Part shown: piece by piece, positions 3,747 through 61,300 of the stretch
How positions within the stretch are numbered: the first letter of the stretch is position 1
How the letters are laid out: each line of letters begins with the position of its first letter
NCBI GenBank assembly: GCA_964016885.1
Contig: OZ024755.1
Span: 10,478,001 to 10,542,000, forward strand
DNA from: Eledone cirrhosa
Lineage: Eukaryota
Direction: 5' to 3'
Length of the DNA: 64,000 bases
Position numbers and translations under genes: made by a program
The notes under the pieces: model-generated
Database searches by the model: none
What the model was told of the DNA's origin: nothing
What the model saw: the letters and a program-made list of their open reading frames with translations, nothing else

Positions 3747-3935
3747 AACGAAGGAAATGTGGTAAGGAACCAGGTGGACCATAACGCACCAAATTACTCA
3801 ATACTTAAGATAGTAGAGTGGGTAATAGGAACAGGTAAGACCCCGACGGCTGAGCTCAAGCCGTTTCGACGGAATTAGCCAGAATTAGCCGTCGAAACGG
3901 CTTGAGCTCAGCCGTCGGGGTCTTACTTGTTCCTA
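3747..3935 (-). mobile_element. Palindromic TA-inserted element family C (Penelope-like derived, partial hammerhead)
   Basis: Inverted arms 3826-3872/3889-3935 plus an ~80 bp unique tail shared with 8430-8618. Flanked by (TA)n. Confidence 0.8.
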
Positions 3936-4020
3936 CATATATATATATATATATATATATATATATGTAGGAACGTGTGTAGGTAGATAAAGTGTTGTCT
4001 ATGTATATCCGGCAAGGATG

Positions 4021-4255
4021 TTTAAACAAGAAAGTTGCTTACCATTTATATCCATCGTATATATATATGTATATATATATATAGGAACGAGTAGGACCTC
4101 GACGGCTGAGCTCAAGCCGTTTCAACGGCTAATTCTGGACACGTTATGGTCCACCTGGTTCCTTACCACATTTCCTTTGTTATATATATATATATATATA
4201 TATATATATATATGTACACGATAGATATAAATGGTAAGCAACTTTCTTGTTTAAA
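4021..4255. repeat. 38-bp inverted repeat around a (TA)n core
   Basis: TTTAAACAAGAAAGTTGCTTACCATTTATATCCATCGT (4021-4058) versus its near-perfect reverse complement at 4218-4255. Confidence 0.85.
4082..4181 (+). mobile_element. Family C element, internally deleted
   Basis: TAGGAACGAGTAGGACCTCGACGGCTGAGCTCAAGCCGTTTC...joined to tail TATGGTCCACCTGGTTCCTTACCACATTTCC, inside (TA)n. Confidence 0.8.
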
Positions 4256-4821
4256 TGTATATATATATATGTATATATATATGTATATATATGTGTATAT
4301 ATATATATATGTGTGTATATATATATATGTGTGTATATATATATATATATATGTGTGTATATGTATATATATATATATGTGTGTATATATATATATATAT
4401 ATGTGTGTATATATATATATATATATGTGTGTATATATATATATATATATATATGTGTATATATATATATGTGTATATATATATATGTGTATATATATAT
4501 ATATGTGTATATATATATATATATGTGTATATATATATGTGTATATATATATGTGTGTGTATATATGTGTGTGTATATATATGTGTATATATATATGTGT
4601 ATATGTATATATATGTGTATATGTATATATATGTGTATATATATGTGTATATGTATATATATATGTGTATATGTATATATATATGTGTATATGTGTATAT
4701 GTATATATATATATATATGTATATATATGTGTATATGTATATGTGTATATGTATATATATATATATATATATGTATATATATGTGTATATGTATATGTGT
4801 ATATGTATATATATATATATG
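4256..4821. repeat. (TA)n/(TG) compound microsatellite
   Basis: Direct inspection. Source of spurious YI-rich ORFs. Confidence 0.95.
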
Positions 4822-5172
4822 TATTGGTAAACGGAATAGAAAATGCTGACAAATTGTTCACAGTTGAAAAATGGTTTAATTAGGAATAAAAGAGTATTAG
4901 TGATTGTATGGGTTAGTATTCAGTTGTGGTTTTAAGATCAGAGCAAACAGCACGGACACTCTATCTCAAAATTATTTTTGAAAAGCATTTAGAAATGCGC
5001 AACCGGTAAAAACTTAAAAACTTAAAACCACAACTGAATACTAACCCATACAATCACTAATACTCTTTTATTCCTAATTAAACCATTTTTCAACTGTGAA
5101 CAATTTGTCAGCATTTTCTATTCCGTTTACCAATATATAATAACTTGTGTGTTACACCTCTATTCTTTTAAC
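4822..5172 (+). mobile_element. Fold-back element with ~115-bp inverted arms and hammerhead-like spacer
   Basis: Arms 4822-4936 and 5021-5135 appear perfectly complementary. The 84-bp spacer holds TTGAAAA-GCATTTAGAAATGC-GCAACCGGTA. Short 3' tail. Flanked by (TA)n tracts. Confidence 0.8.
4975..5011 (+). ncRNA. Minimal type-I hammerhead motif, U3-A8 variant, probably inactive (GAAA>GCAA)
   Basis: UUU|UUGAAAA|GCAUUU-AG-AAAUGC|GCAA-CCGG-UA|AAA. Same layout as 40141-40170. Confidence 0.55.
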
Positions 5173-6080
5173 TATATATATGTATATATATATATATATA
5201 TATGTATATGTATATGTGTATATGTAATATATATATATATATATATATATGTATATATATATATATGTATATATATATGTATATGTGTATATGTAATATA
5301 TATATATATATATATATGTATATATATATATATGTATATATATATATATATATATGTATATATATATATATATGTATATGTGTATATGTAATATATATAT
5401 ATATGTATATATGTGTATATGTAATATATATATATATGTATATATGTGTATATGTAATATATATATGTATATATATATATGTGTGTATATGTATATATAT
5501 ATATATATGTGTATATGTAATATATATATGTATATATATATATGTGTGTATATGTATATATATGTATATATATATGTGTGTATATGTATATATATGTATA
5601 TATATATATGTGTGTATATGTATATATATGTATATATATATGTGTGTATATGTATATATATGTATATATATATATGTGTATATGTATATGTGTGTATATG
5701 TATATATATGTATATATATATGTGTATATATGTATATATATATATATATGTGTATATGTATATGTATATATATGTGTATATGTATATATATGTATATATG
5801 TATATATATGTATATATATATATATGTGTATATGTATATATATGTATATATATATGTGTATATGTATATATATGTATATATATATATGTGTATATGTATA
5901 TGTATATATATGTGTATATGTATATATATGTGTATATGTATATATATGTGTATATGTATATATGTATATATATGTGTATATGTATATATATATATATATG
6001 TGTATATGTATATATATGTATATATATATATATATATATATGTGTGTATATGTATATATATGTATATATATATATTTATA
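5173..6080. repeat. (TA)n/(TG) compound microsatellite
   Basis: Direct inspection. Confidence 0.95.
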
Positions 6081-59060: not shown

Positions 59061-59912
59061 TTCTATATACTTCTTTACATACAAATACAATGAGAAAAAG
59101 GGGAGCAAGGAGAAATATGTAAAAGGATAGCAATGAGAAAAAAAATATATATATATATATATGTGTGTGTGTGTGTATATAATATATACATATATATATA
59201 TATGTATATACATATATATATATATATATATGTATATATATATATATATATATATATATATATGTATATATATATATATATATATATGTGTGTATATAAT
59301 ATATACATGTGTATATATATATATATATATATATATATATTAGGAACTTACCCACGGACATACACTCACAAAAATCCATAATACGTATAAACACCACATG
59401 TGCGCACCCCCACATATATACACACTCAGCCTCCGGAATCGTCTCCCCCCTCCCCCACCCCTCTGACCCCTCTCCATCCACACGCGCGCACACACACCGA
59501 CCTACACCCCACCCAAACACACACCTTCTCCTGAACACGGAACCTCGTTCTTCCCCCAACTCTCACATTCACACACACACACACACACACACACACACAC
59601 ACACACACACACACACACACACACGCACATGTACACCTACACACATACACCACCTTCAGCCCTCCCCGCTCGGACACCCCGCCTCCTTCTCCCCACTCCA
59701 TCCACCACCACCCCTACACTCCCCACACCCTTCCACCACTCGTTTATCTTCATGTTTATTTTTATTTTTTTTTTAATATTTATTTTCATTGGTACCCCTT
59801 CCACCGTTTTTCCTCCCCCCCTATTTTTTTCTAAATGTCTCTCCTCCACTCCCCTACACACCCTCGGAACTCTCTTCCCACACACTTCTCGCCTGAAGAA
59901 GGGCTTATGCCC

Positions 59913-60282
59913 GATTGGCAGTATCGGTAGAGGGTCGGACGCCATGCTTTCCAGCATAGTTACGTCCCTTTACGATCTGAGTTCAAATCCCGCCGAGGTT
60001 GACTTTGCCTTTCATCCTTACGGGGTCGATAAAATAAAGTACCAGTAATGCACTGGGTAATTGCTGGCCTTGTGCCTAAAGTAGAAACAATTATCTAAAA
60101 TACCAGGGCGGTGAATTGGCAGTATCGGTAGAGGATCGGACGCCATGCTTTGACGCATAGAGTTACGGCCCTTGCCATTCTGAGTACAAATCCTGCCGAG
60201 GTTAACTTAAGGGGTCGATAAAATAAAGTACCAGTAATGTACTGGGTAATTGCTGTCCTTGTGCCAATAGTAGAAACAATTA
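59913..60282 (+). mobile_element. Head-to-tail SINE family A pair
   Basis: 59913-60094 and 60106-60282. The second has TSD ATTATCTA(AA/TT)ATACCA at 60090-60105 and 60279-60294 and lacks part of the core. Confidence 0.9.
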
Positions 60283-60573
60283 TCTATTATACCATAGCCA
60301 ACAATCATATGATCACCCCATTTTGTCCTCATGTTTGGGGAAAATCATGATCATATTCCTATTTTATGTGTGAAAGCTGATGCTTCGTCACAGGTTTGAT
60401 TACACACACACATATATATATATATATATATATATACATATACATATTCATAATGGTAAAGAAGTGAATAACGAACAATAAAGATAAAGTAAAAATTATA
60501 TAATGCGCGTGGTTCTCTCTGTTGGCAATATTTGCAACATGACCATCCCCAAATATAACAATATATATGTATA

Positions 60574-60744
60574 TAGGAAAATAGTCAGAATTTCGACGGC
60601 GTCAGTTCGGATCTAGCTGTCGAAATGGCCAGAGCTCAGCCGTCGGGGTCCTGACTCTTTTCCCATTACCATCTCTACTACCCTAAGTATCGAGTACATT
60701 GGTGCGTCATGGTCCACCTGGTTTCTTTAAATACTTTCTTTGTT
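60574..60744 (+). mobile_element. Family C element, older diverged copy
   Basis: TTTCGACGGC...GCTGTCGAAATGGCCAGAGCTCAGCCGTCGGGGTCC plus tail CTCTACTACCCTAAGTATCGAGTAC...GGTCCACCTGG. Confidence 0.8.
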
Positions 60745-61019
60745 ATATATATATATATATATATATCTTCTCACTTTCTGTTGCTTAAACCATTTTGTTT
60801 GTTCACCCTAAAGGTTCTCTTTATTTACGTGTCCCAACGACTTTTTTTAGCCGTTGCTCGCACCAACCTGAGGTATATGGCCCTTAAAGCGATGAAATGC
60901 CTAGGACGGTGGAGGGTCACTGATGAAGGACTCACTTTTTCATATGTAACCCATTTGCAACGCCGCAGCTCCATTATTATCATATTTACATATATATATA
61001 TATATATATATATATAAAC

Positions 61020-61300
61020 GGAAAAAATGAAACGAAATTTCATTTCCCACTCTTAGTACGGCTGTTACTTAAATATAAGTATGTACACGTACATACATAT
61101 ATGTATACAGACGTACAGTAGTATGTATATATATATATATATATACATACATGCACACATATATGTACGTATGGAAACATTTATTATAATGCTCGATGTG
61201 TTTGTAAACAAACATCCCGTATTACGCCATAGGGTCTAGCAACCATCGTTGCTCGTTTGCTCAACACTGACAAAGGAACGCTGTACTAGTTTCAAGCTTA
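61020..61300 (-). mobile_element. Family B copy truncated inside hammerhead stem II
   Basis: Reverse complement of ~8066-8332. Ends ...GTACTAGTTTCAAGCTTA into (TA)n. Confidence 0.85.

Follow-up and report, generated by a model that had tools for sequence, protein, structure and literature searches.

Inverted, (TA)n-bounded hammerhead repeats of Eledone cirrhosa as ends of Penelope-like elements and a retrozyme likely moved by their proteins

What are the short inverted repeats that lie in (TA)n across a 64,000-nucleotide (nt) stretch of the Eledone cirrhosa genome (contig OZ024755.1 of assembly GCA_964016885.1, positions 10,478,001 to 10,542,000 of the forward strand; hereafter the window), and how did they come to have one arm inverted and a tail at a single end? 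An earlier note on this DNA had described at least five distinct fold-back elements, each with a minimal hammerhead ribozyme, and had proposed that they are solo pseudo-long terminal repeats (pLTRs) or non-autonomous, retrozyme-like RNAs mobilised by the proteins of Penelope-like elements (PLEs). We sorted them into five families, A (at 4825), B (7436 and 61017), C (six copies), D (40934) and E (39941), within a host genome of 3.0 Gb. The first of the two proposals suits four families: we are highly confident that A, C, D and E are 5′-truncated, head-to-head 3′ ends (pLTRs) of four Penelope-like families. The second suits B only. The best explanation overall, which we consider probable, is that these PLE ends are accompanied by a retrozyme without open reading frames (ORFs), B, likely moved by PLE proteins.

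Elsewhere in the genome, A, C, D and E extend for kilobases and reach ORFs for reverse transcriptase (RT) and GIY-YIG endonuclease, as the proposed link to PLEs had implied; none was found past the tail in the 38 cases of B examined. A long copy of C (locus L161) consists of an inverted 5′ copy, a pLTR, a 580-amino-acid open RT frame that begins within the tail, an endonuclease and again a pLTR, in a unit of 3,530 bp. Nine loci of D have the same endonuclease about 1.1 kb upstream, and L313 is a full-length copy. The long copies of A (L263, L265) have a unit of about 4.8 kb in which a 455-amino-acid ORF1 is followed by RT and GIY-YIG, and both RVT_1 and GIY-YIG score above the Pfam cut-off. 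The 455-amino-acid ORF itself (L265, 1754-3118) has no Pfam match and has a relative in family E, whose long copies are L315 and L316 and which has related ORFs in L314-L317. The partial tandem pLTR-ORF-pLTR was seen in C (L161), A (L263/L265) and D (L313), and an ORF with 3′ pLTR and inverted arm in E; 5′ truncation, an inverted 5′ copy and a single-ended tail occur in all four families. ORF searches returned protein relatives that include Argonauta and Octopus entries. Given the linked RT and GIY-YIG ORFs, the window elements of A, C, D and E are, as judged from sequence, stubs of autonomous-type PLEs. The five elements thus stand as five families, with A and E being sisters and all but B being ends of longer elements.

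C and D carry RWR in place of RWK, DKT, CxCX5C, CxxC with CxH, no CCHH, and (TA)n, and we class them as putative Hydra-type by these motifs rather than by a tree; the Hydra clade (PMC8557442) shares RW(K/R), DKT, the CxCX5C linker, CxxC with CxH, the lack of CCHH, (TA)n targets and a hammerhead in the 3′ repeat. C and D differ from that clade in their units of 3.5-4.1 kb with a 3′ untranslated region of about 1 kb and in tails of 80-84 nt against 30-40; C differs further in its U3-A8 core, a loop II of roughly 40 nt and a long stem III. The hammerhead stems listed for Hydra-1_Obim (Craig et al. 2021, PMC8557442) differ from those of C and D, which are different families. A and E carry DKG, YLDD, a CX2-5CxxC linker and a CCHH-type GIY-YIG, as well as microsatellite targets, all as in the Neptune (or Nematis) clade; we call them Neptune-like, with the proviso that these motifs do not separate Neptune from Nematis. 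Their separate 455-amino-acid upstream ORF and U3-A8 hammerheads set them apart from that clade, as does the nearly fixed A13C change in A.

All of the inverted elements exist, within a few bases of where they had first been placed, and share one plan: they are bounded by (TA)n, one arm is inverted, and the tail is confined to one side. The longest ATG frame in the six window elements checked is 11-87 amino acids, in agreement with the claim that they have no ORF, and the ends of A, C, D and E lie in (TA)n, as the proposed (TA)n targeting had it. Their parts are as follows.

4825-5172, plus strand: family A, Neptune-like PLE 3′ end; inverted arm 4825-4936 ending at site X, sense arm 4935-5172 ending at site Y, 40-nt tail 5133-5172
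4975-5011, plus strand: family A minimal hammerhead motif; U3-A8 core at 4978, 5-bp stem II, GCAA replacing GAAA (A13C), stem III palindrome ACCGGU, predicted cut after 5008
7436-8334, plus strand: family B, two head-to-head arms of a retrozyme-like 428-nt monomer; X end of the left arm at 7436, right arm passing X (8275) and continuing via a 59-nt tail to Y (about 8334)
7643-7684, minus strand: family B hammerhead motif of the left arm; U3 facing G8, against a family majority of C3-G8
8045-8086, plus strand: family B hammerhead motif of the right arm; two core changes
61017-61298, minus strand: family B single arm, 5′-truncated within stem II; tail 61017-61078
39941-40244, plus strand: family E, Neptune-like PLE 3′ end; 65-nt tail 39941-40007 (Y) on the left (minus) arm, right arm 40103-40244 ending at X
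40141-40170, within the preceding element: family E U3-A8 hammerhead motif
40934-41201, plus strand: family D, putative Hydra-type PLE 3′ end; 84-nt tail 40934-41017 (Y) on the left (minus) arm, right arm 41103-41201 ending at X; CUGAUGA core at 41106, GAAA at 41140
3748-3933, minus strand: family C, putative Hydra-type PLE 3′ end; hammerhead 3′ half only, tail 3748-3827
4084-4180, plus strand: family C copy with internal deletion
8432-8616, plus strand: typical family C copy; X end on the inverted arm, 5′ core absent, sense arm with GAAA-stem III-GUC and then an 80-nt tail
41542-41674, plus strand: family C copy, right arm partly deleted
55530-55677, plus strand: family C subfamily copy; right arm begins 3 nt before the predicted cut site
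60575-60743, plus strand: divergent family C subfamily copy

In every family the 3′ end falls at one of two fixed sites, X or Y, 40-84 nt apart and with TA-rich DNA beyond them. In head-to-head pairs one arm nearly always stops at X and its partner at Y: this holds for 15 of 18 rows in A (two ambiguous rows fall in one locus, and one has a partial tail), for all eight resolved arrays in B and, in best-match samples that are skewed to young copies, for 65 of 68 pairs in C (36 of 39 once 29 query-selected pairs are dropped), 3 of 3 in D and 19 of 20 in E. Independent choice of ends would yield at most 50% X/Y pairs. Among the first 100 matches of A, all 28 opposite-strand neighbours lie head to head, 99-4,931 bp apart. 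Where the two arms of C and E pairs differ by more than 15 nt, the X arm is the longer in 14 pairs and the Y arm in 7. The arms of C pairs have 39 variants in common, 5.6 being expected (0 of 2000 shuffles), and one insertion of A (L272/L273) has a rare GAAA in both arms. The 5′ ends gather not at the cut site but upstream of it, and truncation at the cleavage site as the source of short copies was rejected, there being no pile-up of C 5′ ends at -17. Three chimeric head-to-head joins were also seen (L101 1398-1846, L126 1398-2477 and L169 about 4850-6400), two of C with E and one of B with a Hydra family; they hint that different RNAs can be joined, and deletion between neighbours could also produce them.

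Family B forms head-to-tail arrays of a monomer of about 428 nt with one hammerhead motif each, and a 24-nt motif of it has 12,720 exact matches genome-wide (control 0). Downstream of the tail, 26 of 38 copies continue into B, 11 end in TA-rich DNA and one is unassigned; none of the 38 enters an ORF. With a longest stop-free frame of 67 codons and 36% GC, below the limit of 45% for non-LTR retrozymes, B is such an element by genomic definition. It shows the full Penelope insertion signature: its ends lie in TA at two fixed sites, its arms are inverted head to head, and X is paired with Y; it has no poly(A) end and is dispersed across many contigs. We think it probable that PLE proteins move it. 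Five apparent XX rows proved to be internal monomer joints, and an apparent join of E and B (L216), which is B adjoining an internal TA run, was dropped.

Minimal type-I hammerhead motifs were found in natural copies of all five families. In D, stem I (ACUGC/GCAGU) and CUGAUGA are followed by a long stem II, mismatched at its fourth pair, and GAAA-UAUAUA-UA; E has CUU/AAG, UUGAAAA, GCAG/CUGC as stem II and GAAA-CCGG-UA; B has CGGUG/CAUCG, CUGACGA, AGCU/AGCU and GAAA-CUAG-UA; and C has ACCCC/GGGGU, UUGAGAA, a long loop II, GAAA, a 17-nt stem-loop and UC. The core, three stems, NUH and a palindromic stem III are present in the majorities of B, C, D and E, so that the minimal motifs that had been proposed, U3-A8 variants and palindromic stem III included, hold for the families (for A with A13C, GAAA being almost wholly replaced in its core). 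The majority counts (64/68 for the E core, 30/37 for U3-A8 in C, 44/48 for D and 31/43 for C3-G8 in B) are no proof of selection, given the youth of the sampled copies, whose median pair identity is 0.95-0.98. The motifs exceed chance: for A, B, C and E, a single natural copy apiece passes a minimal descriptor that 0-2 of 1000 shuffles pass. A relaxed descriptor that permitted all four 3-8 pairings picked out another 52 motifs from 979 kb of loci; they comprise 26 stem III types, have C3-G8 or U3-A8 in 50 of the 52 and show a mean stem III palindromy of 0.92, and a reversed-DNA control gave one match. The sister families A and E differ by paired changes in stems I and II; sequence covariation is thus supported across families, while within families the copies are too young to judge.

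That each window element carries a hammerhead is true of the families rather than of the copies. The 5′ core of C is absent throughout the 64 kb and from all six C copies; the true core, UUGAGAA, was recovered from a longer copy, and a guessed CUGANGA pattern was discarded after its 10 matches all fell inside an unrelated long interspersed element (LINE). Just 3 of 67 incidental terminal C arms reach the core. In the window, B has core changes in both full motifs, D has a mismatch adjoining the predicted cleavage site, and E keeps only 2 stem I pairs. Other minimal hammerheads in loci L001-L280 fall into at least 26 stem III types, and several more families of Hydra-type endonuclease occur there; by these sequence criteria, the genome contains a large unannotated set of putative PLE ribozymes. 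A TA-bounded repeat at 142-281 is probably a sixth PLE stub: its palindrome (224-281) looks like the 3′ half of a further hammerhead family that is whole in L267.

Family A departs from the invariant G12-A13-A14 of the minimal type-I hammerhead. GCAA replaces GAAA in 30 of 30 copies of a positional sample, and a pattern search of the genome returned 12 GAAA matches against 6,670 matches of the family; ten GAAA copies that we viewed had no common subfamily marks by eye. Changes at A13 are described as lowering cleavage 10-100-fold (PMC4075628). Family A, with its ribozyme probably weakened, reached thousands of copies and retained the palindrome ACCGGU. We found no description of an A13C hammerhead in the literature searched; the paper of Lunse et al. 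on PLE hammerhead variants lay outside that search and may describe A13 variants.

How, then, could inverted pairs with a one-sided tail be made? In vitro, an Anolis PLE protein cut and extended both strands, was modelled as a dimer, started at two sites bounding the tail and inserted without ribozyme cleavage (PMC11167929). From these data together with the X/Y pairing, the longer tail-less arms and the shared variants, we infer two coupled primings, and we moderately favour twin priming as the mechanism. An RT-endonuclease dimer would nick both strands of a TA tract; the two nicks would prime reverse transcription, one at Y and one at X, both on RNA from the same source element; and both cDNAs would halt early and be joined head to head, to leave an inverted pair with the tail on one side. 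The hammerhead would travel with the pLTR as a passenger; weak cleavage is predicted for it, in dimers formed via its palindromic stem III, and this cleavage is probably dispensable for making these insertions. B would provide tandem or circular RNA carrying the same X and Y sites. A more elaborate version, which we consider unlikely, is that the dimer primes at each tail end on paired RNAs held by the palindromic stem III; the hammerhead would then be a template-pairing device whose catalysis can decay, as in A, while the palindrome stays, and B would exploit the machine in trans.

Several results weigh against these interpretations. Besides the placement of C and D by motifs, Pfam returned no match for four Hydra-type ORFs and a PDB search of the Hydra-type ORFs found nothing. 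B showed no homology to six PLE references (best E 0.09), and no parent PLE among them. None of the window copies of any family has a fully canonical hammerhead, and the one D copy put to the minimal descriptor fails its strict 4-pair rule for stem II. Three targeted Rfam scans (D, B and E), the check that had been proposed beside the descriptor, gave no hammerhead, nor did a scan of the window among the 150 of 575 matches listed; predicted monomers fold no better than shuffles (z -1.5 to 0.05). As to the arms, the pairing counts for C, D and E carry the skew of best-match samples, variant sharing is not significant in E (9 pairs), shared variants could also stem from conversion between arms, and some long X arms could partly reflect later deletions.

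The name fold-back implies a single priming, in which a cDNA begun at Y would fold over at a hairpin (stem II, for example) and then serve as its own template for the inverted arm. This would account for the variants common to both arms and for the 52 of 65 C pairs that are symmetric within 15 nt, adjoining stem II. However, in 14 C and E pairs the tail-less arm extends further 5′, by up to 900 nt, something that a self-copying cDNA could not yield, and such a cDNA should neither end its second arm exactly at X nor yield the two chimeric joins of C with E. We regard fold-back as already disfavoured, quite unlikely, and probably not the origin of the inverted arm. Alternatively, the short forms of A, C and E may be non-autonomous families that propagate from short RNAs, with a promoter inside the pLTR such as the internal promoter described for Penelope of D. 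virilis (PMC2377424). Most of the 67 incidental C arms indeed begin between 44 and 62 nt upstream of X, and -62 is a sharp limit that just 5 pass; E 5′ ends cluster at -140/-144; and 11 of 28 A pairs are spaced 99-103 bp apart. Yet the junctions vary from copy to copy and lengths are continuous up to full length, so that the palindrome is formed anew at each insertion. We give the propagation of such short families a lesser, though not a small, chance; the idea of short templates is an addition to the twin-priming account rather than a separate family, and an internal promoter is one possible cause of the clustered 5′ ends.

B might spread without PLE proteins, by local tandem amplification or by other LINE machinery: no PLE with its pLTR was found among the six references, and the loci are rich in RTE and other LINEs. 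This sits poorly with its dispersal over many contigs and with TA-bounded ends at two fixed sites, inversions, X/Y pairing and the lack of a poly(A) end, and we judge it very unlikely. We attach almost no credence to the view that the elements are miniature inverted-repeat transposable elements (MITEs) or DNA transposons with terminal inverted repeats whose hammerhead likeness is due to chance. Inverted arms and TA flanks do recall Tc1/mariner MITEs, and Rfam recognises no hammerhead; but the arms are asymmetric, extend into RT genes and vary in length between 50 bp and kilobases, the descriptor controls and cross-family covariation speak for the motifs, and fixed-length symmetric terminal repeats without an RT parent were not found.

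The PLE anatomy described here is mostly known in kind; what is new are the Hydra-type and Neptune-like PLE-end families and a retrozyme. Metazoan PLE minimal hammerheads (Cervera and de la Pena 2014, PMC4209133) have a short stem I, a palindromic stem III and U3-A8, with many sequence families per genome and opposite-strand pairs 100-700 bp apart from truncated PLEs; A13C in family A and U10.1-U11.1 in B, a tolerated variant (PMC3088659), differ from them. Animal non-LTR retrozymes (PMC7229834; bioRxiv 10.64898/2026.07.22.740005) resemble B in being ORF-less tandem monomers with one type-I hammerhead each, in its 36% GC, in their dispersal as monomers to multimers and in their coexistence with PLEs. 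At 428 nt B slightly exceeds their 170-400, its hammerhead is minimal rather than canonical, and its explicit PLE-type ends and inversions are not described in the passages compared. PLEs are named as candidate movers of retrozymes in PMC7229834, and the bioRxiv paper adds support from co-occurrence and trees, without settling the mechanism. Poseidon PAc of Anolis (Frangieh et al. 2024, PMC11167929) likewise has two RT starts bounding the tail, both strands cut and extended, and dispensable cleavage; no strand difference in start site is reported there and later steps are left open, whereas the genomic X/Y coupling suggests coordination. Further prior art is found in PMC13282606, PMC6962438 and PMC6765202. 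The idea that such ribozyme carriers are unannotated in cephalopods holds in part only, given a Hydra element of Octopus bimaculoides with a listed hammerhead (supplement of PMC8557442) and 235 hammerhead_1 loci reported from giant squid; window families A-E themselves we did not find in the literature examined. The main text of a repeat paper on O. vulgaris contains neither 'hammerhead' nor 'Hydra'. Neither in PLEs nor in a retrozyme such as B did we find the X/Y rule in the literature searched, with Repbase, Dfam and older Penelope papers outside the search.

The window also holds other repeats. The DNA at 22863-23705 we take to be an internally deleted element of Tc1/mariner type: its terminal inverted repeats are 88 bp long and 98% alike, it is flanked by TA, and it retains part of a transposase-like frame. 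An abundant family resembling short interspersed elements has about a dozen window copies (3214-3321, 12277-12470, 14805-15110, 25116-25412, 36037-36212, 37419-37742, 39158-39366, 43998-44205 and 59905-60291), in which ARAGORN detects no tRNA. Five TA-bounded dispersed repeats (21948-22356, 35336-35594, 41228-41472, 60766-60985 and 16987-17104), with 6-28 matches in the loci and no hammerhead in a quick scan, are possibly other TA-targeting elements. A LINE reverse-transcriptase remnant, presumably RTE-like, lies at 42920-43707, with a rearranged partial copy at 38216-38375, and an isolated 96-bp palindrome (57658-57753, 94% complementary) is not repeated in the loci examined.

Most of this is ordinary Penelope debris and should be annotated as such. 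We stress that it is also material for testing three questions raised in the cited papers: how the inverted arm and one-sided tail of PLE insertions originate, whether animal retrozymes are moved by PLE proteins, for which the case has so far been made from co-occurrence and sequence kinship, and whether cleavage is required of pLTR hammerheads. As a resource it offers thousands of young copies, a 12,000-match retrozyme with PLE-type ends, and, in A and E, sister families with different bases at one position of the ribozyme core; its main value lies in the X/Y coupling, the PLE-type ends of B and the A13C family.

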